Shown: positions 6,539-59,178, counted from the first letter of the stretch. The stretch is 64,000 nt of DNA from a virus (IMGVR_UViG_3300019487_000031:1-64000), one strand, 5' to 3'. Notes: generated from the sequence alone by a model not told the origin. Made by a program: numbers and translations.

Positions 6539-7065
6539 AAGAATTTTACGATCTTGATAAAAATTTTGAGTTTAATATAAGTTCAATCGCTAGTAAATTT
6601 GATATGATTTTTAATTTGATAGAATTAAAGTTAATAAGCATTGATGAAGCTAAAGAACTTTTTTTAGCTCCAATTTTAGTTTGTGAATGTGGCGGCGAAA
6701 AATCTTATACAACCCATTCTAGCTGGTGTCCTAAATACCTATGAGTAATCCTTTTAAAATTGGAGATCAAATTGAATATAGAAAGGATAAAGGCTATCCA
6801 AACAGGCTAACTCTAGGAAAAATTTATACAGTAAAAGATATAAATGATATTTTTGTTATTATTACTGATGATACTGGCTACACAGGTCAATGGGCATCAA
6901 CATATTTTGATTATTCACTTCTTACTATTTCTCCTGGAATGATAGATTATAGTAATTATAATCCTGTTTCATTAACAGAGTAACATGGCTGTTTTTATGA
7001 ACGTAAATGCGAATGTGGCTCTGAAAAAGTAGGACGTTCTGCTCATTCAACATGGTGTCCAAAAT

Positions 7066-9884: not shown

Positions 9885-11405
9885 ATGAAATTTAATGAAA
9901 ATGCAACAAAAGAAGAAGTTGTTAATTATATGGGCAAAAAAGCCTATAAACAATCCCCTAAAGAAGAACTAATTTTTGCCGTTTTAACCACTTTCATTGA
10001 AGATTCTTATTATGAAAACAAGACAGATCGTCTTGACCGAATTAAGTCTTTAGTTAAGGCCGCTGATCCTAAATTCGTTGCTAAGTTGGCAGTATACGCT
10101 AGAACAGTATTTCATATGCGGTCTGTGTTCGCCGTTTTAATTGGCGAACTTTCCAAAATTCACAAAGGAACTAGTCTTGTACGAAAAGCTATTGTACAAG
10201 GCGTAACTAGAGTAGATGATATTACTGAGATTGTTTCTTATTTAGGAGTTACTAATCCAATTCCTAATTCTGTAAAAAAAGGAATTAACGAGGCTCTTAA
10301 TAAATTCGATTCATATCATTTTGCGAAATATAGAGGAGAAAATAAAACTGTAAAACTAATAGATGTTGTTAATTTAACTCATCCTAAAGCTACTAATCCT
10401 AAAACGTCTGAAGCCCTTCGAAAACTCGTTAAAAATGAATTAAGAAATACAGATACTTGGGAATCCAAAATGTCAGGCGGACAAAGTGCTGCCTCAACTT
10501 TTAATGAATTGTTAGATTCTAATAAATTGGGATACATGGCACTTCTTAGAAATCTTCGTAATATCGCAAATACCGGAGATACTAATTTAGTTAAAAAAGT
10601 CGCAGCTATGATTAGTAATACAGAACAAGTTAAAAAATCTAAGCAGCTGCCTTTTCGTTTTCTGTCAGCTTTTGAAGCCTTGGAACAAAATACTGATTCT
10701 ACTGGGGTAGTTTTTGAAGAGGATTCAGATAATACTAATATTCTAAAAAATGCTGTAGAAGAAGCTCTAATGGTTTCTATTCAAAATATTCCACTTTTAA
10801 GTGGCAGAACGCTTATTTTGTCTGATAATTCAGGCTCAATGCATGGAGATAAAGGTGGAAATTCTTTAACTTCAGCCTATTCATCTAGAACTACTGCATC
10901 TATTGCGAATTTGTTTGCCGTATTATATTGGATGAGATCTGATAATACTTTTGTTGGACTTTTTGGCGATAGATTAATCACTCCGAAATTGGACCGAACT
11001 AAGTCAATTTTAACAAATTATAAAACTATTGCCCAATCATCTGGAGACTGTGGTTCTGGAACAGAGAGAGGAATTTTTGATGCCATAGAACTCCTTTTGC
11101 AGGAGAAAAAGAAAGTTGAACGGATTGTTATTTTTTCCGATTGTCAGGTTGGTGATGGTTGTGATTGGTATGACGATTATGGAAATAGAGGAGATAACTT
11201 TAATAAACTACTTAAGAAGTATCAAGAATTTAATCCTAACGTAAAAGTTTATACCGTGAATCTAAAAGGGTATAATAATGAAATGACTTCTCAAGGAAAT
11301 GTAATGAGACTTACTGGATGGAGTGATAAGATTTTTGATATTATGGAAAGAAATGAAATTGCCCCTGAAACTATGGTAAAAGAAGTTGAAACTATTGAAC
11401 TATGA
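9885..11405 (+). CDS. rsr: Ro60-like protein with a TROVE domain and a C-terminal vWA domain (MIDAS DxSxS)
   Basis: N-terminal FAVLTTFIEDSYYE and AKLAVYARTVFHMR resemble the Ro60 TROVE region (FLCFGSEGGTYY). C-terminal LILSDNSGSMHG is a vWA MIDAS motif. Length is 506 aa, typical of Ro60 orthologs. Confidence 0.65.
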   Translation: MKFNENATKEEVVNYMGKKAYKQSPKEELIFAVLTTFIEDSYYENKTDRLDRIKSLVKAADPKFVAKLAVYARTVFHMRSVFAVLIGELSKIHKGTSLVRKAIVQGVTRVDDITEIVSYLGVTNPIPNSVKKGINEALNKFDSYHFAKYRGENKTVKLIDVVNLTHPKATNPKTSEALRKLVKNELRNTDTWESKMSGGQSAASTFNELLDSNKLGYMALLRNLRNIANTGDTNLVKKVAAMISNTEQVKKSKQLPFRFLSAFEALEQNTDSTGVVFEEDSDNTNILKNAVEEALMVSIQNIPLLSGRTLILSDNSGSMHGDKGGNSLTSAYSSRTTASIANLFAVLYWMRSDNTFVGLFGDRLITPKLDRTKSILTNYKTIAQSSGDCGSGTERGIFDAIELLLQEKKKVERIVIFSDCQVGDGCDWYDDYGNRGDNFNKLLKKYQEFNPNVKVYTVNLKGYNNEMTSQGNVMRLTGWSDKIFDIMERNEIAPETMVKEVETIEL

Positions 11406-16943: not shown

Positions 16944-17144
16944 TTGGCTGTAAGATATCGCAGCCCGGGAATAATGAATAGAAGTAATTACTCTAAACAT
17001 TTATCTGTTGATCATAATCATAAAACTAAACAAGTCAGAGGTTTATTATGCACCTCTTGTAATTCTGCACTTGGATTATTTAGAGAATCTGCTATAGTTT
17101 TAAAGGGCGCAATTAATTACTTGAAAAAATATGAGAAAAAATAA
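16944..17144 (+). CDS. Mini endonuclease VII-like protein (66 aa)
   Basis: LSVDHNHKTKQVRGLLCTSCNSALG matches the endonuclease VII core. It sits immediately upstream of the intein-containing primase-helicase. Confidence 0.55.
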   Translation: MAVRYRSPGIMNRSNYSKHLSVDHNHKTKQVRGLLCTSCNSALGLFRESAIVLKGAINYLKKYEKK

Positions 17145-20707: not shown

Positions 20708-21316
20708 ATGAACAAAACAGCATCAAAGCCAAATCCAGTTTTTACAGTAGGGCATTCCAATCACTCGCTTGAACATTTTTTGGAGTTACTCAAACACCAT
20801 GAAATTACCACTGTGGCGGACGTGAGATCTCAACCGTACAGTCGATTTAGACCAATCTTTAATCGCGAAGCACTGGAGTCGGAGCTTAAAAAAAATCAGA
20901 TCGCATATGTTTTTCTGGGTAAAGAACTCGGTGCTCGTTCAAACGATTCGACCTGCTATGTGAACGGCAAGGTCAGCTACGAGCGACTTGCAAAGACATC
21001 CTTATTTAAAGATGGGATCAACCGAATTCTCAAAGGAGCAAAGAAGTTTCGCATTGCGTTGCTCTGTGCCGAAAAAGTCCCTCTCGACTGCCATCGCACC
21101 ATTCTTGTTAGCAGATACTTGGTAGAACGCGGAGTTGATGTGAGCCGTATTTTATCTGACGGTACGTTGGAAGCGCACGAAGACACGATGAGTAAACTTC
21201 TGGCAGAAACAGGAATTGGTTCCGCTCTTTTTGATTCAAGATCCGATCTTCTCGCAAAAGCCTATGAAGAACGAGGTAGTCAGATAGCATACAAATTGCC
21301 TTCAGAACCGAAGTGA
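20708..21316 (+). CDS. DUF488-family protein (copy 1) in GC-rich island 2
   Basis: The N-terminus VFTVGHSNHSLEHFLELL...TTVADVRSQPYS is the DUF488 signature. Local GC is much higher than in the flanks. Confidence 0.55.
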   Translation: MNKTASKPNPVFTVGHSNHSLEHFLELLKHHEITTVADVRSQPYSRFRPIFNREALESELKKNQIAYVFLGKELGARSNDSTCYVNGKVSYERLAKTSLFKDGINRILKGAKKFRIALLCAEKVPLDCHRTILVSRYLVERGVDVSRILSDGTLEAHEDTMSKLLAETGIGSALFDSRSDLLAKAYEERGSQIAYKLPSEPK

Positions 21317-21801
21317 CGAGAGGATGTGCGATGAAGATTTTTACAGTTGGATTCACCAAAACATCTGCTGAGTCTTTCTTTTCTCGCCTAAAGGAAAATG
21401 GCGTGCGGCAACTTCTCGATGTAAGACTGAACAATGCTTCGCAGCTTGCGGGTTTTGCTAAGAAAGATGATTTGCGGTTTTTTCTGAAATCCATTTGCGG
21501 AATTGAGTACGATCACGGGCCAGAACTAGCCCCGACTTCTGACATGCTCGATGAGTACAAAAAAAGGGGGGGTGGGCGCGCTTTCCACGCTCCTTGGAGA
21601 AACTTTTTGAGTTATAAATGTCAAATTTGCAATAAGCCCTTTCCTGATCAAGTTTTCTATGTTAAACTTCCTGGTCATGAATCTCCAGTTTGTGAGCATA
21701 TAGAACAAATCTTAGTTCATGAAGAAAAACAAAAACAGTTCCAAAAAAGTTTAAAGGATCCCACAAAAGGTTTTTATGAATATAGAGAAAAGTTTGAATG
21801 A
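21313..21801 (+). CDS. DUF488-family protein (copy 2) with an AT-rich C-terminal Cys/His extension. The junction lies at an A7G7 homopolymer tract
   Basis: MKIFTVGFTKTSAESFFSRL...LLDVRLNN is DUF488-like. The composition switches from GC-rich to AT-rich at 21559-21572 (AAAAAAAGGGGGGG), followed by CQICNK...HESPVCEH. Confidence 0.5.
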   Translation: MTRGCAMKIFTVGFTKTSAESFFSRLKENGVRQLLDVRLNNASQLAGFAKKDDLRFFLKSICGIEYDHGPELAPTSDMLDEYKKRGGGRAFHAPWRNFLSYKCQICNKPFPDQVFYVKLPGHESPVCEHIEQILVHEEKQKQFQKSLKDPTKGFYEYREKFE

Positions 21802-23326
21802 TCGTTTAATATATGGTAAAGCTTCTCAATCTCATATCGTTTCTATTGAATGTAAAGACGATAAGGCTATTCTTTTCTTAGAAACCCCCCAAGGTATAGA
21901 AACCAAAGAAGTTCCTAATAGATATTGGCTTCTCTCGCCCAAGCCTTATTACCCAGCCAAATGGCGTAAAATGGCCGGTAATCAATTCTTTCAGTATGGC
22001 AGGCAGTTCTCCTCACGCGAAGCCTTCCAACGCGCTAGAAGCTATTATAAGAAGAATGGCGACGTTTTTAGCGTTTGGAACGAAAAGGAAAGCTTCATGG
22101 TTCTTTTCGGCCATAGCTATTACCGTAATCTCGATATTAAGGATGTTTCTATATTATCCTTCGATATTGAAACTACATCATTAGATCCTAATGAACCTAA
22201 TGCTAAAGTTCTTTTAATCTCTAATACTTATCGTAAAGGCGGAAAAGTAGTTAGACAGCTATTTGCATATGATGATTACGATTCTCAAGAAGAAATGATT
22301 AAATCTTGGTGCAAAGTAGTTCGAGAATATAATCCTTCTATTTTATGTGGTCATAATATTTTCACCTTCGATTTGTATTATCTTAATGAAATTATGAAAC
22401 ATCATGGCGGATTAAAATTGGGCCGCGACGGATCTAATCTTCATTTTTCTAATTACGAATCCCTATTTCGCAAAGACCAAACCCAAAACATTTCATATAA
22501 AAAGGCTTTTATATATGGGCGTGAAATTTGCGACACTCTTTTTCTTTCTATAAAATTTGATATTGTTCAAAAGAAATACGATTCTTATGGATTGAAACAT
22601 ATTATTAATAGAGAAGGATTGGAAGATCCGAATCGTGTTTTTTATGATGCCGAACAAATTAGATTTAAATATCAAGATCTTAAAGAATGGGAAAAAATTA
22701 AAGAATATTGTAAAGGCGATTCGGATGATGCGTTAAAGCTTTTTGATTTAATGGCTCCTCCTTTCTTTTACCTCACGCGCTCAGTTCCTAAGTCTTTTCA
22801 GGAAATCATTTGCCGCGCCACGGGTTCGCAATTAAATTCTATGTTTGTTCGTAGCTATCTTCAAGAAGGGCATTCAATTCCCAAAGCTGATATTGGAAAA
22901 GAGTTTACTGGGGCGATTTCTTGGGGAAATCCGGGCATTTATTCTAATGCCATTAAATGGGATGTGGCGTCTCTGTATCCTTCTATTTGTTTACAATATG
23001 AGATTTATCCTAAACAAAAAGATCCTCAAAAGAACTTCTTGAAAATTTTAGAATATTTTACAAAAGAACGGCTTTCAAATAAAAAGATTGCACAAGAACA
23101 AAAAAGTAAATATCATAAGGATATATCTGAAGCCCAAAAACAAGTTTGTAATTCTGCTTATGGGATGTTAGCAACGAACGGATTAAACTTTAATAATTTT
23201 GAACAAGCTCAATTAATTACAAAACATGGCCAAGAAATTTTATGTAAGGCGATTAAATGGGCAACAGGAAAAGAATATGAAGAATGGAATCCAGAAGAAA
23301 ATGAAGAAGTTGAAACCGAAGATTGA
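21776..23326 (+). CDS. Family B DNA polymerase, N-terminal part (3'-5' exonuclease plus palm motifs A and B)
   Basis: Exo I SFDIETT. Motif A KWDVASLYPSI (DxxSLYPS). Motif B KQVCNSAYG (KxxxNSxYG). The ORF ends about 50 aa after motif B, with an acidic tail. Confidence 0.8.
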   Translation: MNIEKSLNDRLIYGKASQSHIVSIECKDDKAILFLETPQGIETKEVPNRYWLLSPKPYYPAKWRKMAGNQFFQYGRQFSSREAFQRARSYYKKNGDVFSVWNEKESFMVLFGHSYYRNLDIKDVSILSFDIETTSLDPNEPNAKVLLISNTYRKGGKVVRQLFAYDDYDSQEEMIKSWCKVVREYNPSILCGHNIFTFDLYYLNEIMKHHGGLKLGRDGSNLHFSNYESLFRKDQTQNISYKKAFIYGREICDTLFLSIKFDIVQKKYDSYGLKHIINREGLEDPNRVFYDAEQIRFKYQDLKEWEKIKEYCKGDSDDALKLFDLMAPPFFYLTRSVPKSFQEIICRATGSQLNSMFVRSYLQEGHSIPKADIGKEFTGAISWGNPGIYSNAIKWDVASLYPSICLQYEIYPKQKDPQKNFLKILEYFTKERLSNKKIAQEQKSKYHKDISEAQKQVCNSAYGMLATNGLNFNNFEQAQLITKHGQEILCKAIKWATGKEYEEWNPEENEEVETED

Positions 23327-23462: not shown

Positions 23463-23817
23463 AGAAATAATTTTAGATAATGGATTTTATTCTATTATTC
23501 TTGAACATAAAGATGATAATTTGTATGTTGATTTTAAAGTTTATAGTATTTTCACAGTTTCAAAGGGGAGGAAACAATGGATTGAGTATCGGGATGAAGC
23601 CGATTTAAATAAAACAGTAGAAAATGTCGCCGAAGCTCTTCCATTAATTCAAGGTTATTTAAAATATGATGGTTGTATTAATTATACCTATCCTAGTCAA
23701 GAATGTTATATGCTTCATGGATGTTCTTTAGAACGCTTTCGATCTATTCTAAAAGTTTTTGAAGCTATTTATCGAGAATCTGCAAAATTAATGTCTACTG
23801 TTTACGACTATGATTAA
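23455..23817 (+). CDS. Hypothetical protein in the polB-interrupting cassette
   Basis: This ORF ends with VYDYD*, just as the upstream ORF does. The 18-nt junction TTACGACTATGATTAAAG is repeated at 23447-23464 and 23802-23819. Confidence 0.4.
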   Translation: MIKEIILDNGFYSIILEHKDDNLYVDFKVYSIFTVSKGRKQWIEYRDEADLNKTVENVAEALPLIQGYLKYDGCINYTYPSQECYMLHGCSLERFRSILKVFEAIYRESAKLMSTVYDYD

Positions 23818-24361
23818 AGTTATAGGCCCAAAAGATAAAAAGAAATATAAAAATTATATTAATGTTACGTCTTCAGGTTCAGACAGGTTTAAATTCCTTT
23901 CTCCATTTTTTCTCGGGCCTGTAAAACTTTATAATAATATTTATTCTAAAAATATGGAAAATGCCTGGCAATTTTCTAAAGTTTATAAAGAACATTTAGA
24001 TTTAAATGGTAATCCTTCAGAACAATATTTTAAATGGGCTAAAAAAGGTTGGAACGATTCTTGGGCTCATCGATATCCTATGGGAAAAAATAGAAAGCCT
24101 GAATATTCTTATTGGGATGGAAAGAAATTAGATTATTTACAAGGCCGCCAACAGATTTATATTCCTTTGTATTCTTCTTTAGTTGAAAAAACTGGTCAAT
24201 TTACTGATTTGGTTAACCGAGCAAAACAAAAAGAAGATATAATTATATTTGATTATGATGGTTATTCGGATTATGATACACTTGAAGAAGTTACTAAGAA
24301 TCCTAATCGTAAAATGGGCCATGGATTTGTTTTAGCTTTATGTATAATTTCACGCTTATAA
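23810..24361 (+). CDS. Divergent NADAR (DUF1768)-like protein in the polB-interrupting cassette
   Basis: RFKFLSPFFLGPVKLYNNIYSKNMENAWQFSKV resembles the NADAR N-terminal signature (F.FLSNF.....G..Y.S.EHAYQA.K). The later LVEKTG is compatible with the NADAR C-terminal half. Weaker than the NADAR at 30139. Confidence 0.35.
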   Translation: MIKVIGPKDKKKYKNYINVTSSGSDRFKFLSPFFLGPVKLYNNIYSKNMENAWQFSKVYKEHLDLNGNPSEQYFKWAKKGWNDSWAHRYPMGKNRKPEYSYWDGKKLDYLQGRQQIYIPLYSSLVEKTGQFTDLVNRAKQKEDIIIFDYDGYSDYDTLEEVTKNPNRKMGHGFVLALCIISRL

Positions 24362-25008
24362 ACTGCGACACCGATTCTATTACTATTAGTAAACCCGATA
24401 ATTCCCCTTTCTCCGTTCAAGAACAACAAAAGCTTTTAAAAGAACTTAACTCTTTATTTCCTGAAAAGATTTCTTGGGCGGACGATGGGTATTTCCAAAA
24501 GGTTATTGTATTCAAGGCTAAGAATTATATTTTATGGGATGGGGAAAAGATTAAGTCCAAAGGTTCGGCTCTAAAGGATGGTAAAAAAGAACAAGCTCTT
24601 AAAGATTTTATTCAAGAAACAGTTCAAGCGATTTTAAACGATAAAGAAAACTTTCAAGAAATCTATCATAAATATATTAAAGAAGCTTTGGATATTAAAG
24701 ATATTAAAAGATGGAGTTCCAGAAAAACCCTAACACATAAGACTTATAGTTCTTCTCGTCCAAATGAAACAAAAGTTATTGATGCGATTAAAGGGACTGA
24801 TTATAAAAATGGTGATAGAATCTGGACATTTTTTAAAGAAGATGGTTCTTTAGAACTTGTGGAAAATTTTAATGGTGAATATGATAAAATGGTTATGGTG
24901 AAAAAAGTATTCACGACTAGTAAATTATTTGCTTCTGTATTGGATCATAAGATGATATACTTGAACTATTCTTTGAAGAAAAATTTAGAGGCTCTAGAAA
25001 AACTATGA
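24340..25008 (+). CDS. Family B DNA polymerase, C-terminal part (motif C plus KKRY/thumb)
   Basis: INCDTDSITI is motif C (DTDS) 10 aa from the ATG. KAKNYILWDGEKIKSKG is the KKRY-like motif. Confidence 0.75.
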   Translation: MYNFTLINCDTDSITISKPDNSPFSVQEQQKLLKELNSLFPEKISWADDGYFQKVIVFKAKNYILWDGEKIKSKGSALKDGKKEQALKDFIQETVQAILNDKENFQEIYHKYIKEALDIKDIKRWSSRKTLTHKTYSSSRPNETKVIDAIKGTDYKNGDRIWTFFKEDGSLELVENFNGEYDKMVMVKKVFTTSKLFASVLDHKMIYLNYSLKKNLEALEKL

Positions 25009-25710: not shown

Positions 25711-26499
25711 ATGAAATCCCTACCAGATAATATTAAAACTCTTCCTGAACTATCTTCCCAATCTATTCTATTGTCCTATAGAGGTTCCATTGCTCATAAT
25801 CTATATCAACCTTCCAATGAACCCAATTCTATTGATGATATTGATTTAATGGGAATTTGTGTTCCTGAAGTTTCTTATTACTTCGGCTTAGATAAATTCG
25901 CCCCCCGAGATACAAAAGAAATGTTTATTGATGAATGGGATATCGTTTGTTATGAACTTAGAAAGTTTGTATATCTTTTAATGAAGGGAAATCCTAATGT
26001 CATTTCAATGCTTTATTTAAAGCCGGAACATTATTTAGTAAAGCATCCAGCGGCTGAACTTTTAATTGAAAACAGAGCTTTATTTAATTCCCACGAGATT
26101 TATCATTCATTTATTGGCTATGCCAAAGCTCAACTTTATAAAACGGAACATATGGTCTTCAAAGGCTATATGGGAGAAAAAAGAAAGAAACTTGTTGAGA
26201 AGTTTGGATATGATACTAAAAATGCCGGGCATCTTATTAGATTAATGATGATGTGTAATGAATGGTTAGTTGAAAAAAACTTTGAGGTTTATCGGGATTT
26301 TGACCGTCAATTTCTTTTAAATATTAAAAACGGGATATACTCTTTAGATCAGATTAAAGAAATGGCGGCTAATTTATTTACAAAAGGAGAAGCTCTTTTT
26401 AAAGCACAACAAAAAACTATTCCAGAAACGGTTGATACTAAAGCTGTAAATGAATTGTTATTGGAAATGTATAAGAAAATTGATTGGGTGAAATTATGA
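25711..26499 (+). CDS. Pol-beta-superfamily nucleotidyltransferase (KNTase-like: NTase N-domain plus helical C-domain)
   Basis: SYRGSIAHNLYQPSNEPNSIDDIDLMGI fits the GS...DxD nucleotidyltransferase motif. The C-terminal half is all-helical. Confidence 0.4.
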   Translation: MKSLPDNIKTLPELSSQSILLSYRGSIAHNLYQPSNEPNSIDDIDLMGICVPEVSYYFGLDKFAPRDTKEMFIDEWDIVCYELRKFVYLLMKGNPNVISMLYLKPEHYLVKHPAAELLIENRALFNSHEIYHSFIGYAKAQLYKTEHMVFKGYMGEKRKKLVEKFGYDTKNAGHLIRLMMMCNEWLVEKNFEVYRDFDRQFLLNIKNGIYSLDQIKEMAANLFTKGEALFKAQQKTIPETVDTKAVNELLLEMYKKIDWVKL

Positions 26500-27065
26500 C
26501 ATTACATGATTTAATAGCCGATTTAACAAAAGAATTATCTTTAACTCCAGAACAACAATTTAAAGTAACTGCTAAAGTCAAAAGGTTAATTCATAATGAA
26601 AAACATGGATTATGCTATAGACTGTTTCTATATTCCCAAGGATATCCAATTTTCGATAAGCCGCATGATCCAGATAACCCGGACACCGAAAGAACAATTG
26701 TTGGATATGAAGAACCAAAAGATCCTTTTATTAATAATCTTTTAAAAGAAAAATCCGATAGTCATTCAAAACTATCTGAACTTCCTGATGATCAACTTGT
26801 TACATGGAATGTCGGAACGCATATTTATAAATAAGGAATATAATATGACATTACAAGGACTTATTAATAGGCTAGAAAAACTAAAGAAAACGGCGGGCCC
26901 GCGAGCTAAAGTTGTAGTTGATTTAGCGGAGTTTCTCAGTATTTGTAAAGATTATTCCCATTGGGAAATTTGTATGCTCACTCATGAAATTATTAGATTT
27001 GAGGTTGAGGGTAGTTTTGAAAATAAAGATGGCTCCGAAAAACTTCGTTCTGTAATTACTTTATC

Positions 27066-28055
27066 ATGAACTTTCTTCCGAAAAATGATGGGATAGATCA
27101 TATTAATATTTATTCCCAAGGTCAAACCAAGATCGGCCAACTCCTTTCTAATTTCGCACATACCCCTTTTCGCGTTCCTTTAATGGGAACTTTCCAATCC
27201 GTCGAGGGGTTTTGGTATTATTGTTTAATCGGGAAAAAGGAATTAAAAAATCTTGTTGGATTTGAAGCTAAGCAATTCGGGAAACGGCATTTAAAAATTA
27301 AAGATACTGTTGATTCTAGATTACTGGAAATTGCCTATAGAGCCAAATTAAGAGATAATCTTTACATCATTCCAAAATTGCTATTGATGCTTCATTCTAA
27401 GTTACAAATTGCCCACTATTACGTTTATGGTGGTAAAGCGGTAACCCCGAAAGAATTTCAATGGATCGCTGAGTTATGGAAAGAAATTCCTATTAACATT
27501 CTTCCTACAAAAGATAAAGTTTTTAGAGCTTTAACTTATTTCAAACCACAACAAACCAAAGCTATTATCATAGGCCAAGATCCGTACCCGAATCCAGAGG
27601 ATGCTTGCGGGCTTGCTTTTTCTGTAGAACATAATAAACCCCCCGCTTCTTTAAAAAATATCTTTAAAGAACTTAAAACCGATTTAAATATTAATTCCCC
27701 CAAAACGGGAAATCTAGAGCCGTGGGCGAAACAAGGAGTTCTTCTTTTGAATTCAGTTCTTACTACGGAGAAAGGAAAATCCGGAGCGCATAAAAATATT
27801 GGCTGGGAAGAAATTACAACTAATACAATTCAAAAAGCTTTAGATTGTAAACAACCAATAGTTATTATCGCTTGGGGTTTTGACGCAAAGAAAAAGCTTG
27901 AAACTTTAAAATTACATGATAAAGTATTGGTATTAACGGGCGGTCATCCGTCCCCGTTAAATACTTCTGTTTCTTTTTTGGGCGGCAAATATTTTTCTAA
28001 GGCCAATGCATTTTTAAATACGAACGGGATTAAAGAAATTGACTGGAGATTATAA
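27066..28055 (+). CDS. ung: Uracil-DNA glycosylase (family 1) fused to an unrecognised 130-aa N-terminal domain
   Basis: AIIIGQDPYPNPEDACGLAFSV is the GQDPY water-activating loop, and GGHPSPLNTSVSFLGGKYFSKAN is the HPSPLS motif. The first 130 aa show no recognisable motif. Confidence 0.8.
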   Translation: MNFLPKNDGIDHINIYSQGQTKIGQLLSNFAHTPFRVPLMGTFQSVEGFWYYCLIGKKELKNLVGFEAKQFGKRHLKIKDTVDSRLLEIAYRAKLRDNLYIIPKLLLMLHSKLQIAHYYVYGGKAVTPKEFQWIAELWKEIPINILPTKDKVFRALTYFKPQQTKAIIIGQDPYPNPEDACGLAFSVEHNKPPASLKNIFKELKTDLNINSPKTGNLEPWAKQGVLLLNSVLTTEKGKSGAHKNIGWEEITTNTIQKALDCKQPIVIIAWGFDAKKKLETLKLHDKVLVLTGGHPSPLNTSVSFLGGKYFSKANAFLNTNGIKEIDWRL

Positions 28056-28377
28056 TGAAACTAATTGGATTTATTGAAACGGGTTTGGCTAATAATCAAA
28101 CGCATTCTATTCCAAAAAATTCTGAAATTCTTTCAGCTAAGATTTCTCCTTATGGACTTATTATTAGCTATATTTATGATATAACTTTTCAGAATGATAG
28201 AGAAAATAGAAATTTCTTAGTTCTTAATAGTAGTGATACTGTTCCTAGTCATTTGTCTCAAGTTCATTTAGTTGATTCTGTTTTTATTAATGATACGATT
28301 TTTCATGTTTTTGAGAATCCTTGGGTATTTTAACAACTAGTTCTGTAGATATTCAGAAAGAATATTGAAAGGAAAAT

Positions 28378-29502
28378 ATGAGAGAATATAAACACGCCAT
28401 TTTCATTGGCCGATTTCAACCGTTCCATAACGGCCATTACGAAGTCCTAAAACAGGCCCTAGAAATTGCCGACACGGTTCTTGTATTAGTCGGTTCTTAT
28501 AAAGTCTCTACAAATATTAAAAATCCTTTTACGTTTGAAGAACGAGTTCAAATGATTCAATCGGTTATTGATGACCGCACTTATGAATATCCTTCTCCAG
28601 ATCAAGCAGTAACTATTGGCGGGGAACTTTTAAAGCGCGTTAAATTTATCCCCGTTCGTGATCATTATAATAACGATAACTTTTGGATTACAGAGGTTCA
28701 GCATAAAGTTTCTGAATATGTAACTGAAAACGAAACAGTTGCATTAGTGGGAAATTATAAAGATGCAAGTAGTTATTATTTAAATCTTTTCCCGCAATGG
28801 GAATTTGTGCCCACAGAACAAAGTTCTAGGCTTTCCGCTACCCAAATCCGCACCATTCTTTTTAAACGCAGTTCTAAAATCCAAGACTTTAACCCATATC
28901 GTCCTGTAACTACCTACGATTCTTTACTTGATCAATCATACGAAAGCATGATTCCATTTAAAATTAATGAGTGGATGATTAAAAACTACTTTAAAACTGA
29001 AAAATACCATAAACACGTAGAAGAATACCAATTTATAGAAAAATATAAGGAACAATGGTCAAATGCTCCTTTTCCTCCCGTTTTTATGACCACGGATTGC
29101 GTTGTAGTATGCTCAGGACACGTTCTTGTCGTGGAACGCGGGTTCAACCCCGGAAAAGGTCAATTGGCGCTTCCTGGGGGCTTTTTAAAGCAAACTGAAG
29201 CTCTTGAGGATGGGGCTTTAAGAGAACTTAAAGAAGAAACGGGTATTTCTATAGATAAGCTAATATTAAAGAATTGTATTGCAGATAAGCGTATTTTTGA
29301 TTATCCTGGTAGGAGTTTAAGAGGAAGAACGATTACTCAAGCTTTCTATATTAGGCTTAAAGATGGGGCTCTTCCAAAACTTAGAGCCGGAGATGATGCT
29401 AATAAAGCAATATGGATTTCTTTAAATGAAGTATCTTCTAAAGAAGAACTGTTTTTTGAAGACCATGCACATATTATTAATTATTTCATTCGGAGAGATT
29501 AA
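28378..29502 (+). CDS. nadM: Bifunctional NMN adenylyltransferase / Nudix hydrolase (NadM-Nudix, phage NatV-like)
   Basis: IFIGRFQPFHNGH is the (H/T)xGH nucleotidyltransferase motif. The C-terminal Nudix box is LPGGFLKQTEALEDGALRELKEETGI (GX5EX7REUXEEXGU). Confidence 0.8.
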   Translation: MREYKHAIFIGRFQPFHNGHYEVLKQALEIADTVLVLVGSYKVSTNIKNPFTFEERVQMIQSVIDDRTYEYPSPDQAVTIGGELLKRVKFIPVRDHYNNDNFWITEVQHKVSEYVTENETVALVGNYKDASSYYLNLFPQWEFVPTEQSSRLSATQIRTILFKRSSKIQDFNPYRPVTTYDSLLDQSYESMIPFKINEWMIKNYFKTEKYHKHVEEYQFIEKYKEQWSNAPFPPVFMTTDCVVVCSGHVLVVERGFNPGKGQLALPGGFLKQTEALEDGALRELKEETGISIDKLILKNCIADKRIFDYPGRSLRGRTITQAFYIRLKDGALPKLRAGDDANKAIWISLNEVSSKEELFFEDHAHIINYFIRRD

Positions 29503-29646
29503 ATGAAGGGAGATTGTCCGGAATGTGGTTCTATGGAAGTTGATTTATATTTTTTAGGAGAAGGTCCTTATACTCCAGAATCTTTCTATTGGCGCGCCGA
29601 TTGTGAATGGTGCGATAATTATAATTCACAAGAAAACGAAGAATAA
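29503..29646 (+). CDS. Small zinc-ribbon protein (47 aa)
   Basis: MKGDCPECGS...RADCEWCDNY (CxxC...CxxC), placed between the NMNAT-Nudix and macro genes. Confidence 0.35.
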   Translation: MKGDCPECGSMEVDLYFLGEGPYTPESFYWRADCEWCDNYNSQENEE

Positions 29647-30152
29647 TGGGACTTGAATATAAAAAAATGTCTTTATTTGATGCGCCGGAAGGTTCAATTA
29701 TTGTCCATGCTTGTAATGCTCAAGGAAGTTGGAATTCTGGAATTGCTAAAGAATTTAAAGAAAGATATCCAAGATCTTTTCAACATTATGAAGAATATTG
29801 TAGATTAAATCCTCGCCATTTAAAAGTTGGACGAGGAAAATTACTTTCTTCAACTATAGAACATAAGCATAAAGTTGGTATACTTATTACTTCAAATAAA
29901 TACGGCGCAGAAAAAGATCCTAAAGAACTTATTAAAATTCAGACAACTCTAGCAATAAATCAACTTTTAGAAACTAATCTTGCCGCGCATGGACGAAATC
30001 CAAGCGTTAAAGGAATTATATATTCTAATAAATTTAATTCAGGACTTTTTAAAGTTCCTTGGAAAGAAACTGAATTGATTTTGACAACGGTTTTAAAACA
30101 CTATTCATGGATTACTTGGATAGTTTGCGATCCTAATCATGAGACAGACTGA
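29646..30152 (+). CDS. Macro domain protein (ADP-ribose binding/hydrolase)
   Basis: SIIVHACNAQGSWNSGIAKEF resembles the macro-domain N-terminal signature (VNAAN...GGGVDGAI). Confidence 0.65.
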   Translation: MGLEYKKMSLFDAPEGSIIVHACNAQGSWNSGIAKEFKERYPRSFQHYEEYCRLNPRHLKVGRGKLLSSTIEHKHKVGILITSNKYGAEKDPKELIKIQTTLAINQLLETNLAAHGRNPSVKGIIYSNKFNSGLFKVPWKETELILTTVLKHYSWITWIVCDPNHETD

Positions 30153-30651
30153 TAAATATCTTTTCTTTTATGGCGGGTTTTTAAGCCAATGGTATCTTTG
30201 TAAGTTTAATGATTGGTTACGTGATTATAATTGTGCGGAACAATGTATGATGGCTCAAAAGGCTTTACTTTTTGAAGATATTAAATCATTTGATTATATT
30301 ATGAAAGAAACCAACCCGGCTTTCCAAAAAGCACGAGGAAGAAAAATTGAGGGATTTAATCAAGAAAAATGGGATTTGTTTAAAGAAGCCATTGTTTGTA
30401 GTGCCAATTATTTGAAGTTTGCACAAAATAAAACACTTCGAAAGAAATTGTTAGATACTAAAGATTTAATATTGGTAGAAGCTAGTCCATATGATAAAAT
30501 ATGGGGAATTGGATTATCAGAAAATAATCCATTGGCAGATGATGAAAAGAATTGGAAAGGTCAAAACCTTTTAGGAAAAGTTTTAATGAAAGTTAGAGAA
30601 AGTTTAAAAAATGTAGATGAACAATTGAGTTCATTGAATAATAAGGAGTAA
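30139..30651 (+). CDS. NADAR (DUF1768, YbiA-like) ADP-ribose-processing domain protein
   Basis: YLFFYGGFLSQWYLCKF...CAEQCMMAQKA plus LKFAQNKTLRKKLLDTKDLILVEASPYDKIWGIGLS track the E. coli YbiA signatures (FYS..DDYGDFSNF...SEHYFQAQKF ... LLATAPAKLVEHTENDAYWGDG). Confidence 0.8.
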   Translation: MRQTDKYLFFYGGFLSQWYLCKFNDWLRDYNCAEQCMMAQKALLFEDIKSFDYIMKETNPAFQKARGRKIEGFNQEKWDLFKEAIVCSANYLKFAQNKTLRKKLLDTKDLILVEASPYDKIWGIGLSENNPLADDEKNWKGQNLLGKVLMKVRESLKNVDEQLSSLNNKE

Positions 30652-30653
30652 AA

Positions 30654-32021
30654 ATGGAAAATCTAATTCTTGACGTCGATAGTTATAAGTTCTCACATTG
30701 GCTTCAATATCCTGCCAATACATCATACATGTTCTCATATCTTGAAAGTCGTGGAGGAAAGTATTCAAATACACTTTTCTTCGGACTTCAATATCTTATT
30801 AAACAACATTTGACTAAGCCTATTACTCCTGCGATGGTTGAAGAAGCGAAACTTTTTGCTGAAGCGCATGGCGAGCCGTTTAATTATGAAGGCTGGATGT
30901 ATATTGCAAAAGATCTTAAAGGAAAGCTTCCTATTCGTATTAGAGCGGTGGCTGAAGGCGCTGTAGTTCCTACTAGTAATATCCTAATGTCTGTTGAATC
31001 AACTGATCCTAAAGTATTTTGGGTTGTATCCTTCTTTGAAACCCTTTTAATGCGAGTTTGGTATCCTATTACTGTAGCTACTCAATCCTTTCATATTAAA
31101 AAGCTTATTAAGAGTTATTTGGAAAAGACTTCTGATGATGCAAACGCTGAAATTAGTTTTAAGCTTCATGACTTTGGAAGTCGCGGCGTTTCTTCTCAGG
31201 AATCGGCAGGAATTGGCGGGGCGGCGCATCTTGTAAATTTCTTGGGTTCTGATACAGTCGCGGGCGTTTATTATGCCAATCATTTCTATAATAATAAAAT
31301 GGCAGGCTTTTCTATTCCCGCGGCTGAACACTCCACTATGACTATGTGGGGGAGAGAAAATGAAGTCGAAGCATACAGAAATATGCTAAAGCAATATGCA
31401 AAGCCCGGGGCTTTAGTTGCTGTTGTATCAGATTCGTATGATCTTTATAATGCGGTTGAAAATCTTTGGGGAGGAACTCTTAAAGATGAGGTTGTAAATT
31501 CTGGAGCTATTGTTGTAATTCGTCCAGATTCCGGCAATCCTCCTGAAGTAGTTCTTAAAACTCTTCAGCTTCTTGAATCCAAGTTTGGAGTTACTTATAA
31601 TAAGAAGGCTTATAAAGTTTTAAATAATGTTAGAGTAATTCAAGGGGATGGAATTAATGAGGAATCTATTCGTCAAATTCTAGAAGTTGCCACTTCTTAT
31701 GGATACTCGGCTTCTAATATTGCATTTGGAATGGGTGGTGCTCTTTTACAACAAGTTAATCGCGATACTCAAAAGTTCGCCTTTAAATGTTCTGCGGCGC
31801 GAGTTGACGGAAAACTTGTTCCGGTCTTTAAAAGTCCTAAGACTGATCTTGGAAAACAATCTAAGAAAGGTTTATTGGATTTGGTTCTAAAAGGTAATAA
31901 GTTTGAAACGGTTGAAGGATTGGATAATGTTGGTTCTGTATTAAAGGTTGTTTATGAAAATGGACAACTTATAAAAGAACAAACATTGGATGAAATCAGA
32001 AAGAGATCAAACGAGTTTTAA
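30654..32021 (+). CDS. nadV: Nicotinamide phosphoribosyltransferase (NAMPT/NadV)
   Basis: The N-terminus NLILDVDSYKFSHW matches the NAMPT signature (TDSYK.TH). The 455-aa length is typical. Confidence 0.8.
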   Translation: MENLILDVDSYKFSHWLQYPANTSYMFSYLESRGGKYSNTLFFGLQYLIKQHLTKPITPAMVEEAKLFAEAHGEPFNYEGWMYIAKDLKGKLPIRIRAVAEGAVVPTSNILMSVESTDPKVFWVVSFFETLLMRVWYPITVATQSFHIKKLIKSYLEKTSDDANAEISFKLHDFGSRGVSSQESAGIGGAAHLVNFLGSDTVAGVYYANHFYNNKMAGFSIPAAEHSTMTMWGRENEVEAYRNMLKQYAKPGALVAVVSDSYDLYNAVENLWGGTLKDEVVNSGAIVVIRPDSGNPPEVVLKTLQLLESKFGVTYNKKAYKVLNNVRVIQGDGINEESIRQILEVATSYGYSASNIAFGMGGALLQQVNRDTQKFAFKCSAARVDGKLVPVFKSPKTDLGKQSKKGLLDLVLKGNKFETVEGLDNVGSVLKVVYENGQLIKEQTLDEIRKRSNEF

Positions 32022-32417
32022 TATGCATTCTTGGGGAGATGGTTTTCCATATTTTAGAGAAGTTGGTGAAGCGGCGGATTTTATTGGGGACTTCTGTATA
32101 AAATACGGAAGAATTCCAGTAAGACAAACTAAAGAAAAGTTTGGAACAGTTCGAGTTTATTCTGGATGGGGGATATACAATCTTTATTGGTTTTTTAGAC
32201 CTCACTATGTATATTATAGATGGCCAAGATACATCCGAGATTTAGATGATGCCGTTTTTGCAAGGCTGTTTAGGTTTTTTAATAAACCAATTTATACATA
32301 TCAATCTTATATTTATAGATTGGCTTATAAAAAGACTATTGAAAAATATCCAATGATTAAAAAAGAAATTCTTTGTTCTGCGGATTGGCCCGAACTTTTG
32401 GTGGGATTATAAAAAAT

Positions 32418-32660
32418 ATGGGCTATCATAAGATAGAAATAAAAAAGGGGGTTTTGGGAGAATCTTCAAAAATTCAAGAAGAATTAGATGAGTTAAAAGA
32501 TGCTGAAAATCAAGGAGTTAAAATTTTAATTCATTGTGAACTATCTGATTTATATGGAGCTTTAGAAGCCTGTGCTAAAAAATATGGACTTTCTATGATT
32601 GATCTTCAACAAATGGCTTTTCTAACGCGTGAATCTTTTGAAGCGGGTAAACGAAAATGA
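32418..32660 (+). CDS. MazG-like nucleotide pyrophosphohydrolase (small, all-alpha)
   Basis: KIQEELDELKDA...ILIHCELSDLYGALEACAKKYGLSMIDL fits the MazG EExxE...D pattern. Start chosen as ATG 32418, after the upstream stop. Confidence 0.45.
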   Translation: MGYHKIEIKKGVLGESSKIQEELDELKDAENQGVKILIHCELSDLYGALEACAKKYGLSMIDLQQMAFLTRESFEAGKRK

Positions 32661-33238
32661 TTGATTATCGAAAACTAGCTGATAGTATAGATTTTTATAA
32701 AAAACTTGGGTTTACGCGAATTGAGGCCCCTTGGTGGGTTTCTAAAGAAGTTTTGGATATTACTACACCCCCAGATTTACAAACAGATTTACAAAATATT
32801 TATTTTCTTCCTAATAACAAAAAATGTTTAGTAGCATCAGGAGAACAGTCTTTTCTTTATATAGCAGTTAAAGGAAGATTACCAAAAGGAAAATTTCAAA
32901 CCATAACTCCTTGTTTTCGGAATGAATCTATAGGTATCTTAAACAAAAAATGTTTTATGAAAAATGAACTTATTATTACAGATAAAGTAAATTCAAAAAA
33001 TTTAGATTTAGTAATCAAAAATTGTTTTTCGTTTTTCTATGAACAAGTTCCTAAAAAAGATCTTTTAAAAATAATTAAAACGGATGTTGGTTTTGACATT
33101 ACTTATGATAAAATTGAATTAGGTTCTTATGGAATTAGACATTGTGAATTTTTAGATTGGATTTACGCTACTGGGTGTGCCGAACCCCGGTTAAGTAGAG
33201 CAATTGAAATAAGTGAAAAATCACGAGGGTTTAAATGA
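32657..33238 (+). CDS. Minimal class II aminoacyl-tRNA-synthetase-like catalytic core (193 aa, no anticodon-binding domain)
   Basis: Motif 1-like KKLGFTRIEAPWWVSKEVL, motif 2 KFQTITPCFRNES (FRNE) and motif 3-like ATGCAEPRLSRAI (G.G.G.ERL). Confidence 0.55.
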   Translation: MIDYRKLADSIDFYKKLGFTRIEAPWWVSKEVLDITTPPDLQTDLQNIYFLPNNKKCLVASGEQSFLYIAVKGRLPKGKFQTITPCFRNESIGILNKKCFMKNELIITDKVNSKNLDLVIKNCFSFFYEQVPKKDLLKIIKTDVGFDITYDKIELGSYGIRHCEFLDWIYATGCAEPRLSRAIEISEKSRGFK

Positions 33239-33899
33239 AACTTATTATCGCAGGAAGTAGAACATTATTAATCCAAACTTCTTTTCTTCAAGAGATTATG
33301 TATCATCATTTTAATTTATTTCCAAAGGAAATTGTTTCTGGGGGATGTCGAACTGGCGCCGATTTTAAACATAAATACACCAAACATTTCAAGCCTAAAA
33401 AACTTCGTAAAGAAATCTATAATTTAAATAATATTAGAAATAGAGATACGTATAATATTGCTAAATGGACGCATAGATTATATACTTGTTTTTTTTCAAC
33501 CAGACGGTTCTCCAAATAAGGGAACAAAGACAGGAAAAATTTAATGAAATATTCCCACAAACAATTAAGTGAATATTGTCAAGAAGTCCAAAAGATTTTA
33601 GATAATGTTGAATATAAACCCGGAAGTTTATTTGATACCTCTATATCTTCAATCGCCGATGCAATTGTTCTTAGAATTGTAGTTCCTTGTATTAGTTCGT
33701 TCGAACATTCTAAAATAATTCCTATAACACATTCAATGATGATTCCTGTAGATGAACTAGAATATGTACAAATGTACTTAGAAAAATTTATTTTGTATCA
33801 TATTTATAGCATGATACAAAGACTGGAAATTCATGAAATCCAAGAGTTTTTGAAATATAAAGATAATTATTATAATCATCCTCACCCCATTGAGGATAG

Positions 33900-36753: not shown

Positions 36754-37206
36754 TTGCAAATTCTGACCAACCACAGACGGAGACTTCTAATGCGCAAGAA
36801 AAACCGGCCAAGCGGCAAAAAGCACGATCAGCACAAAATCCGGCTTGATAGTTCAAGCGGAAGAAAGTTTGATAAAAATAAACCTAGACTATCATTAGTT
36901 TCCAAAGTAGCTTTATTTAAGCTCGCTGAGGTCATGACTGATGGTGAAAAAAAATATGATACCCATAATTGGCGTAAAGGGTTTAATTGGTCTAGGATTG
37001 CTGATGCGGCAGAAAGACATTTAAGTATTTGGATTGCCGGACAAGATTTAGATCCTGATAGTAGAAGGTCTAATTTAGCTCATGCAATGGCTTGTATTAT
37101 GATGCTTCTTGAGTTTGAAGAAACGCATAAACATTTAGATGATAGATATAAGTTATCTGAATGGCTTTTAAATAAATTATATCCACCATTAAATGAGACA
37201 AAATAG
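36754..37206 (+). CDS. Phage dATP/dGTP-pyrophosphohydrolase-like (MazG-associated N-domain family) protein
   Basis: FDKNKPRLSLVSKVALFKLAEVMTDGEKKYDTHNWRKGFNWSRIADAAERHL follows the conserved pattern of that family (R.DL.P..AL..LAEV...G..KYG..NW.KG..WSR..DSA.RHL). Confidence 0.45.
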   Translation: MQILTNHRRRLLMRKKNRPSGKKHDQHKIRLDSSSGRKFDKNKPRLSLVSKVALFKLAEVMTDGEKKYDTHNWRKGFNWSRIADAAERHLSIWIAGQDLDPDSRRSNLAHAMACIMMLLEFEETHKHLDDRYKLSEWLLNKLYPPLNETK

Positions 37207-39559: not shown

Positions 39560-40125
39560 GATATACTTATACTAAATATATTAAATCAACCGGCGATGTT
39601 ATTGAAGGTCGTGCAAACACTAAAGAATTAGCTAAAGCTCGTTTTAAAAAGGCTTTAAAAGCTTTTAGAATGCATTCTGATGCTGGATTACAACAAACTA
39701 ATACTACCAATAAAAGCGGCGATGCTAAAGTTTTAATTCGTAAGAAATTAGTTGGATGGAAAATGGATCAAGATGAAAAAGGAGAGAAATAATGTTTGAT
39801 TGGTTAAAAAATCTTATTAATGCTATGAACGAACGAGGAATTCCACTTCCTATGATTCGAGTAAATGAAAACCCTTCTTTAACTGCCACTATGGTTTTTT
39901 TAAGTTTTAATACGGCTTTATTGGGACAGTTAGGAAAAGTTACTAAGTTTCTTGGAGAAGTTGATTTATCTCAAGCCAATTATTTGCTTCTAATTTGCTT
40001 GGGTGCATATTTAGGAAGAACTTTTCAAAAGAAGGGTAAAGAAGTTACTTTAAGTGCGGAGGAAACAAAAGATGAGTAATAATAATTCTACTAGCGCAGG
40101 AGTTTGACCTTATAATCCTATCGAA

Positions 40126-40359
40126 ATGGACATTCCAGCCCAAAGCATTGATAGTTTAAATGCTCGCTGCCAACGTTCTGGAAAACCCCATGCCGCTCAC
40201 GTATCTCCTAATACCCAAGTAGTTAATACTTTCGTTTTTTCTACTGATACTCCTTTTTTGACAGTAGTTAAAGTGGAAAATGGATTTATTGTGGAAGTAA
40301 ATGGAAAAACTTATGTTTGTAAAACCGCTGAAGAAGTGGTACAATATTTAAAGGAATAG
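40126..40359 (+). CDS. Hypothetical protein whose first 24 codons are an inverted duplicate of the N-terminus of minus-strand ORF 58945..59178
   Basis: MDIPAQSIDSLNARCQRSGKPHAA versus MDIPAQSIDSLNARCQRPGKPHAA, about 92% nucleotide identity over 72 nt. Confidence 0.4.
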   Translation: MDIPAQSIDSLNARCQRSGKPHAAHVSPNTQVVNTFVFSTDTPFLTVVKVENGFIVEVNGKTYVCKTAEEVVQYLKE

Positions 40360-58944: not shown

Positions 58945-59178
58945 TTACTTTAAGTTATAATCTTCTTGTTGACTGTTAGCACCAGAAGTTGCTACGCCAG
59001 CGGTCATATCTCTGGTAGTTACTTGAACAGAACCATCAATAGCTCCGCCTAATAAGGCATCGCATAAATCGCGTAGTTCTACAACAGCGGCATGAGGTTT
59101 CCCAGGACGTTGGCAACGAGCATTTAAACTATCAATGCTTTGTGCTGGAATGTCCATTTCTATTACAATGAACGCCAT
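58945..59178 (-). CDS. Hypothetical protein carrying the inverted copy of the MDIPAQSIDSLNARCQR module
   Basis: See 40126..40359. Confidence 0.4.
   Translation of the reverse strand: MAFIVIEMDIPAQSIDSLNARCQRPGKPHAAVVELRDLCDALLGGAIDGSVQVTTRDMTAGVATSGANSQQEDYNLK

Follow-up and report, generated by a model that had tools for sequence, protein, structure and literature searches.

Depletion of nicotinamide adenine dinucleotide (NAD+) is among the commonest outcomes of bacterial immunity, and the pathways by which phages reconstitute it (NARP1, NARP2, and NARP3) are a very active field. A 64,000-nucleotide stretch of viral DNA (IMGVR_UViG_3300019487_000031:1-64000; the whole stretch is hereafter called the window) raises the question of what such a pathway has to do with enzymes that act on ADP-ribose (ADPR). 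At positions 28378-32021, on the + strand, the genes for a bifunctional nicotinamide mononucleotide (NMN) adenylyltransferase/Nudix protein (NadM) and for nicotinamide phosphoribosyltransferase (NAMPT) enclose those for a macro domain protein, a NADAR protein, and a tiny zinc-ribbon-like protein. An earlier note, made from the sequence, had read this block as a module of two arms, in which NAMPT and the NMN adenylyltransferase rebuild NAD+ while the macro and NADAR proteins strip ADPR off phage DNA or proteins that DarT-type or other ADP-ribosyltransferases have modified. The reading that we favor, and consider moderately probable, is that a large uncultured phage has here a NARP2-type NAD+ reconstitution operon with two added enzymes for the processing of ADPR derivatives.

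Five co-directional, abutting open reading frames (ORFs) fill the block. The first encodes the NadM-type protein (28378-29502, 374 aa), which corresponds to the Nmnat of NARP2; it is followed by the zinc-ribbon-like ORF (29503-29646, 47 aa), the macro domain gene (29646-30152, 168 aa), the NADAR gene (30139-30651, 170 aa), and the gene for NAMPT (30654-32021, 455 aa), the NadV/Nampt of NARP2. All four domain assignments of the earlier note proved right: the Pfam matches exceeded the curated cut-offs, and PHROGs and NCBIfam concurred. The block was found identical in four independent assemblies (Logan SRR7811987 and SRR7811943, JGI 3300019458, and ENA ERZ27251176) and is therefore not an assembly artefact; the longest contig that carries it is 71.6 kb. 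The translational coupling proposed for the block stands insofar as its junctions are tight: the TAA of the NadM gene is followed directly by the ATG of the zinc-ribbon ORF (0 nt gap), the zinc-ribbon and macro genes overlap by 1 nt (TAATG), the macro and NADAR genes overlap by 14 nt, and a 2-nt gap separates the NADAR gene from that of NAMPT, which has a Shine-Dalgarno sequence (AAGGAG). However, such packing is a feature of the entire gene array and not peculiar to the block, the whole run from 25711 to 33519 being equally dense (gaps of -47 to +44 nt). A scan for promoters and terminators gave no enrichment over shuffled sequence (43 promoter-like sites found, 48 expected), so the operon boundary is not definable. 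Given the extent of the packing and the outcome of the scan, the block is part of a long + strand array of replication and nucleotide-metabolism genes and not a demonstrable stand-alone operon.

The two genes that frame the block carry the assignment to NARP2. NadM matched CTP_transf_like (2.9e-18) and NUDIX (3.7e-16) in Pfam and, over its full length, phrog_395 (2.8e-77). Its closest solved structure is the NMN adenylyltransferase/ADP-ribose pyrophosphatase of Synechocystis (2QJO, E 9.8e-91), which aligned with residues 3-372, that is, the full length; against the NCBIfam model NF003791 it scored 386 bits, slightly below the equivalog cut-off of 409. Its HxGH motif (H17-N-G-H20), ISSTxxR-like motif (L152-SATQIR), and Nudix box (268-290) are intact. 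NAMPT matched NAPRTase (5e-61) and NAMPT_N (1.1e-29) in Pfam, phrog_448 (3.3e-157), and NF006629 (649.5 bits, cut-off 405), and keeps the sequences HDFGSRG at 172 (HDFGxRG) and RPDSG at 290; its closest solved structure is a bacterial NAMPT (7YQO, 1.7e-176), with human NAMPT structures at about 1e-122. Both enzyme families and their domain architectures are those of the NARP2 of phage KVP40 (NadV Nampt plus NatV Nmnat/Nudix; Lee et al. 2017; Osterman et al. 2024), again with no Adps; they mark NARP2 as Osterman et al. named it. The gene order is also that of most related loci, NadM preceding NAMPT in 29 of 36 IMG/VR loci whose NAMPTs are 47-69% identical to that of the window. Homologues of NadM occur in 483 of the 50,697 deposited phage genomes, including KVP40-like vibriophages at about 34% identity, a value measured with the NatV homologue of Vibrio phage ValKK3 as a stand-in for KVP40 itself. 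The window block differs from that of KVP40 in having the zinc-ribbon, macro, and NADAR genes between the core genes. Taken together, the homology, the intact motifs, and the likeness to the KVP40 pathway indicate that NadM and NAMPT form a NARP2-type NAD+ reconstitution pathway, as the earlier note had proposed.

An identity of the core with NARP1 was also considered and rejected. No homologue of Adps, the PRPS-like ADPR pyrophosphokinase, was found among the ORFs of the 64-kb window, and the window NAMPT is of the Nampt clade, its match to the NARP1 protein Namat (5e-59) being far weaker than that to the Nampt 7YQO. NARP1 and NARP2 are reported to be mutually exclusive. As to the defences that such a core may overcome, the KVP40 NARP2 gene pair experimentally defeats type I Thoeris and DSR2 (bioRxiv 10.1101/2024.02.11.579819), and the KVP40 pathway also cancels aRES, Nezha being likewise defeated (bioRxiv 10.64898/2026.01.28.702374); SEFIR and CBASS, which the earlier note had listed as well, are an extrapolation beyond these published tests.

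The macro domain protein is the first of the two additions to this core. It matched Pfam PF01661 (1.4e-8; 35.1 bits, cut-off 22) and the PHROGs family phrog_335, annotated 'phosphatase'. Among solved structures, yeast Poa1p alone is strongly related to it (6LFQ, E 7.5e-14), the next macro domain following at 1.3e-3. The two proteins share the motifs HxCNxxGxWGxGIA and NSGxFxVPW; they differ in that their identity is only about 30% and that the window protein stands in a phage context. At residue 28 the window protein has Ser, as does Poa1p, whereas most phage members of the family have Val or Met there. Its database homologues number 346, with identities of about 50%, and JGI has given several of them the name 'ADP-ribose 1''-phosphate phosphatase'. 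The family signature, HxCNxxGxWGxGIA ... YSNKFNSGLFxVPW, is sharply conserved, and H21, N24, G27, W29, G32-I-A34, and N131-S-G133/F135/W139 are invariant in 34 family members. Against the DarG equivalog NF048014, the protein scored 23.6 bits (cut-off 250), with a match confined to its N-terminal 50 residues. These comparisons indicate that it is of the Poa1p/Adpp type, a predicted ADP-ribose-1''-phosphate phosphatase, and not of the DarG type; together with the occurrence of its family in NARP1 operons, they contradict the role of eraser of protein or DNA ADP-ribosylation that had been assigned to it.

Single-protein searches of IMG/VR returned no match for the macro protein and two loci for the NADAR protein, and an alignment-based search was required. 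This search retrieved 36 loci with the window macro family; the distribution given here is that in IMG/VR and the protein database, a tblastn search of the deposited phages having yielded only Myxococcus phage Mx1 at E<=1e-5. The macro gene lies beside Adps and Namat in 17 of the 36 loci, with Namat at the edge of the locus in two more, and alone in 16; the remaining one (L054) has the order NadM, a 103-aa ORF, macro, HNH endonuclease, and NAMPT, and its NAMPT is 71% identical to that of the window. The loci with Adps and Namat independently reproduce the NARP1-AP arrangement (Adps-Adpp-Namat) of Vibrio phage Gary (Osterman et al. 2026), in which Adpp, a Poa1p-like macro protein, turns ADP-ribose-1''-phosphate (ADPR-1''P), the product of the RES-domain system aRES, into ADPR and lets NARP1 beat aRES (bioRxiv 10.64898/2026.01.28.702374). 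The likeness of the window protein to this system was judged by the Poa1p-like family of NARP1 operons (17-19 of the 36 loci) and not by the sequence of the Gary Adpp. The difference is that the window macro accompanies NARP2, which needs phosphoribosyl pyrophosphate (PRPP) and not ADPR, so the NARP1-AP rationale is not directly applicable to it. Moreover, NARP2 alone already defeats aRES, and the Adpp-type macro has been published only with NARP1 (bioRxiv 10.64898/2026.01.28.702374). A Poa1p-type macro gene inside a NARP2 operon, which is real and rare, is therefore unexplained by the published model.

The second addition is the NADAR protein, which matched Pfam PF08719 (6.8e-49; 166.7 bits, cut-off 35.1) and whose closest solved structure is the NADAR of P. 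nicotianae (PnNADAR; 8BAU, 1.9e-16), E. coli YbiA (2B3W) following at 1.2e-5. The residues described for PnNADAR (PMC11543638) were mapped by hand onto the window protein through the 8BAU alignment and then confirmed in its sequence. E34, K41, R68, W78, K82, E114, D119, and W122 correspond to E43, K50, R79, W89, R93, E125, D130, and W133 of PnNADAR, respectively, and all eight ADPR-contacting or catalytic positions are thereby matched. NADARs are classed by a residue of the last strand, which is Glu in NADAR/YbiA, Asp in DarG1 and the DarT1-linked antitoxins, and His in phage gp30.3 (PMC11543638, PMC11125620). E114 indicates that the protein encoded by ORF 30139 belongs to the Glu class, not to the Asp class and not to the His class of T4 gp30.3, and we predict it to be an ADP-ribosyl N-glycohydrolase.

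Members of this NADAR subfamily occur in 719 deposited phage genomes, those of Vequintavirus-like E. coli phages being about 39% identical to the window protein. In Synechococcus phage B3, the NADAR gene (gp47) stands between those of NadM (gp46) and NAMPT (gp49), and in the Xanthomonas jumbo phage XacN1 it lies within a 3.6-kb insert that separates NadM from NAMPT. Synechococcus phages B3 and B23 and XacN1 thus resemble the window in having this subfamily (45-46% identity) between NadM and NAMPT; they differ in that their blocks contain no Poa1p-type macro gene. In four IMG/VR loci (L068 and L073-75), a NADAR 45-48% identical to that of the window is encoded between Namat and the macro gene of NARP1-AP operons, and one NADAR subfamily hence accompanies NARP1 as well as NARP2. 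Iyer et al. (2022) had already described NADAR genes near NadM/NadV and argued that the macro, NADAR, and Nudix domains of phages act mainly on soluble ADPR derivatives (PMC9503650). The supplements of the aRES preprint (bioRxiv 10.64898/2026.01.28.702374) make no mention of NADAR. The NARP1 model phage, Bacillus phage FADO (L083, 5001-6277), encodes a NADAR of this subfamily (gp035) and a Poa1p-related macro protein annotated 'ADP-ribose 1''-phosphate phosphatase related' (gp033) one gene apart; this pair lies away from the region that was inspected for NARP1.

The zinc-ribbon-like ORF that the earlier note had placed within the block was confirmed as an ORF. It would encode 47 aa with the pattern CPEC...CEWC and an acidic tail, and it spans exactly the space from the NadM stop codon to the macro start codon. 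It matched no family in Pfam, PHROGs, or NCBIfam, and a search of 1.84 billion representative proteins returned only the protein itself and two weak matches in long multi-ribbon proteins. Small Cys-rich ORFs (about 64-90 aa; within a 193-aa ORF in L009) fill the slot between NadM and NAMPT in L004, L007-L009, L030, and L031, and a further zinc-ribbon ORF follows the macro gene in NARP1-AP loci (L073-75, 6424-6609); none of them has sequence similarity to the 47-aa ORF of the window.

In the mechanism that we propose, NAMPT would convert nicotinamide and PRPP into NMN, and the adenylyltransferase domain of NadM would join NMN and ATP into NAD+; strong homology speaks for both steps, which would refill the NAD+ pool destroyed by TIR, SIR2, and RES-type defence effectors. 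The macro protein would strip the 1''-phosphate from ADPR-1''P, which is formed by NAD+ phosphorolysis of the RES type and, as a by-product, in RNA repair of the Tpt1 type. The Glu-type NADAR would free ADPR from N-glycosidic adducts, the substrates shown for its class being guanine and cytosine ADPR on DNA/RNA. Free ADPR would then be cleaved by the Nudix domain of NadM into AMP and ribose-5-phosphate, precursors of the ATP and PRPP that NARP2 uses, and the ribose-5-phosphate could be turned into PRPP by the host Prs, feeding NAMPT. Such a funnel from macro and NADAR to Nudix would offset the costly PRPP drain of NARP2 and clear ADPR-1''P, so that the block as a whole would rebuild NAD+ and recycle or detoxify non-canonical NAD+ breakdown products. 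We infer the enzyme activities in the window phage, the counter-defence role, and the funnel itself from sequence.

Several points weigh against the view of the block as an extended NARP2 operon. NARP2 cancels aRES by itself in the published assay and needs no ADPR, so that any benefit of the macro protein to a NARP2 phage would be conjectural. We know of no soluble substrate for any NADAR, the demonstrated activities being on base-linked ADPR or riboflavin intermediates. Since the region of 25.7-33.5 kb is uniformly dense, these five genes by themselves may not be a transcription unit; and, the macro gene lying inside only one other NARP2 operon, the combination may be due to chance juxtaposition in a dense early-gene array. 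The related loci bear on this last point. In none of the 36 IMG/VR loci with NAMPTs 47-69% identical to that of the window was a macro or NADAR gene found between NadM and NAMPT; weak macro-family matches lie 3-4 kb downstream in four related loci (L018, L020, L021, and L022, with L025 a duplicate of L020). The order NadM-macro-NAMPT recurs in one other uncultured phage (L054), and NadM, macro, NADAR, and NAMPT were found together, in IMG/VR and the deposited phages examined, in the window phage only. These neighbourhood counts come in large part from related phages, and shared ancestry inflates them.

The two-armed module of the earlier note agrees with our reading on the NAD+ core and differs on the macro and NADAR proteins. 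All NADAR families tested remove guanine-ADPR from DNA in vitro, and the Glu type also removes cytosine-ADPR (PMC11125620, PMC12945103), and two phage NADARs that are not of the T4 type, AdfN-Bas32 and AdfN-Bas60, neutralise DarT1 in vivo (PMC11825919). The conservation of the ADPR-contacting residues in the window NADAR and its identity to the proteins of Vequintavirus-like phages are consistent with such an activity. The thymine modification of the DarT2 type, however, is not reversed by NADARs (PMC11543638, PMC11825919), so that of the DarT-type modifications that the earlier note would have the NADAR erase, guanine and cytosine ADPR are possible substrates and the DarT2 adduct is excluded. 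The macro protein, Poa1p-like and far below the DarG cut-off, does not fit the second arm, and the recurrence of the same macro and NADAR families in NARP1 and NARP2 operons points to NAD+ metabolites rather than DNA. An eraser role in macromolecular ADP-ribosylation is thus possible for the NADAR and contradicted for the macro protein, and we regard the module as a whole as rather unlikely.

A separate gene, overlooked in the earlier note, fits the eraser role better than the block genes do. Two genes upstream of the block, ORF 27066 (27066-28055, +) encodes a predicted fusion of a His-type, T4 gp30.3/AdfN-like NADAR with a family-1 uracil-DNA glycosylase (UNG). BLASTP of its N-terminus, and of ORF 23810 described below, against the NADAR of the block gave no match. 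Residues 1 to ~145 of ORF 27066 are related to stand-alone phage proteins of about 140-180 aa, which form one family; Phage_30_3 (PF08010) was matched by 7 of 32 homologues (best 2.3e-6) and not by the window protein itself, and a profile comparison of this N-terminus with NADAR gave 96% probability (E 3.8e-9). E47 stands at the position of the catalytic Glu, and an invariant H117 at the class-defining position points to the His class. Residues ~143-329 form the UNG (NF003592, 222.7 bits, cut-off 162), with the motifs GQDPYP at 170 and HPSP at 294. None of the 50,697 deposited phage genomes has the fusion: of 623 records with a match, 0 extend over 80% of the protein. Elsewhere the relatives of its N-terminus stand alone or are joined to DUF4326 (PF14216) or PF10686. 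T4 gp30.3 is AdfN, a proven anti-DarT1 factor (PMC11825919), and the N-terminal part of ORF 27066 resembles it in the NADAR fold, the catalytic Glu, and the phage-class His; it differs in its fusion to a UNG, whereas the NADAR within the block is of the Glu class. Judged by these likenesses, ORF 27066 is a better candidate than the block genes for reversing DarT1-type DNA ADP-ribosylation, and the fusion is a lead of its own on the repair of such modification.

A further explanation is housekeeping, in which the additional NAD+ would serve the replication of the phage itself, an idea reportedly first proposed for KVP40, and the macro and NADAR proteins clear ADPR by-products of RNA repair. The source of these by-products would be 2'-phosphate removal of the Tpt1/KptA type, which gives ADPR-1''-2'' cyclic phosphate and then ADPR-1''P. 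NARP2 overproduces NAD+ also where no defence system is present (bioRxiv 10.1101/2024.02.11.579819), the native role of Poa1p is in tRNA splicing, and macro and NADAR domains have been tied to RNA repair systems (Iyer et al. 2022; PMC9503650). The window also contains genes for a TROVE/Ro60-like protein (9885-11405, +) and an RlaP (RNA-repair-pathway) nucleotidyltransferase (25711-26499, +), which may point to a module of the phage for RNA quality control or repair. However, no Tpt1/KptA, 2H phosphoesterase, RNA ligase, or RtcB gene was found among the scanned ORFs of the 64-kb window, and the macro family occurs inside NARP1 operons, whose only known role is counter-defence. The same scan, in which not every small ORF was included, found no ADP-ribosyltransferase or Prs gene. 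We give this explanation a slim chance. That the NADAR is instead a YbiA-like N-glycosidase that destroys reactive intermediates of the riboflavin pathway and was placed here by chance is highly improbable: it passes the cut-off of TIGR02464, 'riboflavin biosynthesis intermediates N-glycosidase' (146.6 bits, cut-off 73.7), a YbiA-like annotation, and many of its phage homologues are annotated 'GTP cyclohydrolase II', but the window contains no riboflavin genes, the protein is closer to the ADPR-bound NADAR of P. nicotianae than to E. coli YbiA, and in unrelated phages it recurs beside the genes for NadM, NAMPT, Namat, and macro proteins.

The earlier note had also placed a second NADAR-like ORF inside polB, and this observation was borne out. 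ORF 23810 (23810-24361, +) belongs to the Pfam family DUF6939 and lies where polB is split in two, the first half (21776-23326, +) containing motifs A and B and the second (24340-25008, +) beginning with motif C, 'CDTDS'; the ~1 kb between them holds a 78-aa CxxCxGxG ORF, a 120-aa ORF, and the DUF6939 gene. Structure prediction gave ORF 23810 a NADAR fold, with similarity to solved NADARs; with the NADAR of the block and that of ORF 27066, this would bring the NADAR-fold genes of the neighbourhood to three. Comparison of DUF6939 by hhalign was weak both with NADAR (probability 0.6%, E 0.097) and with the gp30.3-like family (probability 17%, E 0.0015); an invariant E-x6-K pair of the kind seen in NADARs is present throughout the family. 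The NADAR fold of DUF6939 is hence a predicted one, settled by structure prediction only. One or two copies of DUF6939 lie 0.2-2 kb downstream of NAMPT in L005-L010, L030, L031, and L033, and fall into two paralogous subtypes that share about 45% identity. The NAMPTs of this clade are 69-93% mutually identical, and those of L007 and L030, being identical, are not separate observations. DUF6939 is thus a recurrent, uncharacterised NARP2 neighbour, and the literature searched contains no mention of it. In Leptospirillum ferriphilum (L084, 5979-6620), a DUF6939 gene follows a 989-aa gene with no Pfam match, beside an MmeI-like restriction-modification gene, a setting that looks like a defence island.

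These associations allow a broader idea, which we put forward tentatively and think rather improbable as it stands. NADAR-fold enzymes, both the Glu-type NADAR and DUF6939, could be a second general class of accessory of phage NAD+ reconstitution, analogous to Adpp, that converts an N-glycosidic ADPR product of a defence that consumes NAD+ into free ADPR. Candidate substrates would be signals of the cADPR or His-ADPR type, base-exchange products, and base-linked ADPR. NARP1 could use the released ADPR directly, and NARP2 phages could recycle it through the NadM Nudix domain to AMP and ribose-5-phosphate. If so, the macro, NADAR, and Nudix functions of the block would form a closed salvage loop, and one would predict a class of defence that makes N-linked ADPR and is unbeatable by plain NARP1.

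The component enzymes and most of the pairwise gene associations described here are already published. New are the combination of NARP2 with an Adpp-type phosphatase published as a NARP1 accessory only, the NADAR accessory common to NARP1 and NARP2, the predicted NADAR fold of DUF6939 with its link to NARP2, and the NADAR-UNG fusion; the locus thereby hints at undescribed NAD+-derived defence products.

The window derives from a large phage with no close cultured relative: megablast against the deposited phages gave no match, and blastn gave only short, gene-level matches of 63-74% identity. Its replication genes include a UvsX-like recombinase, a primase-helicase, and the split family-B polymerase, and its genes of nucleotide metabolism and modification include ThyX, Dam, dUTPase, and dCMP deaminase; structural genes lie on the - strand from 44 kb onward. 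The central ~360 aa (residues ~400-770) of the 1003-aa primase-helicase (17131-20142, +) match intein-bearing terminase PHROGs, which suggests an intein within this protein. A tandem pair of DUF488 genes, the second of them shorter (20708-21801, +), lies in a GC-rich patch (41%, compared with about 32%) that is the only one in the + strand array, and its recent acquisition is therefore suggested. Directly downstream of the block, a weakly PRA-PH/MazG-like small protein (32418-32660, +) is paired with a 193-aa protein (32657-33238, +; phrog_4806) resembling the core of class-II aminoacyl-tRNA synthetases, and the same pair stands 2-3 kb upstream of NadM in the NARP2 loci L020, L022, and L025. 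The next ORF (33235-33519, +; 94 aa) has a SLOG/DUF2493-like start (GSR...SGGCRTGAD) followed by a Lys-rich tail, gave no Pfam match, and may be a truncated or frameshifted SLOG gene. A 78-nt inverted repeat has its arms at 40120-40197 and 59086-59163, 18.9 kb apart and 92% complementary, each overlapping the start of a small ORF; the repeat matched no Rfam family and no tRNA. A gene at 36754-37206 (+) encodes a MazZ-like protein with a dATP/dGTP diphosphohydrolase N-terminal domain (PF18909, 8.3e-32), a family known from modified-purine phages.

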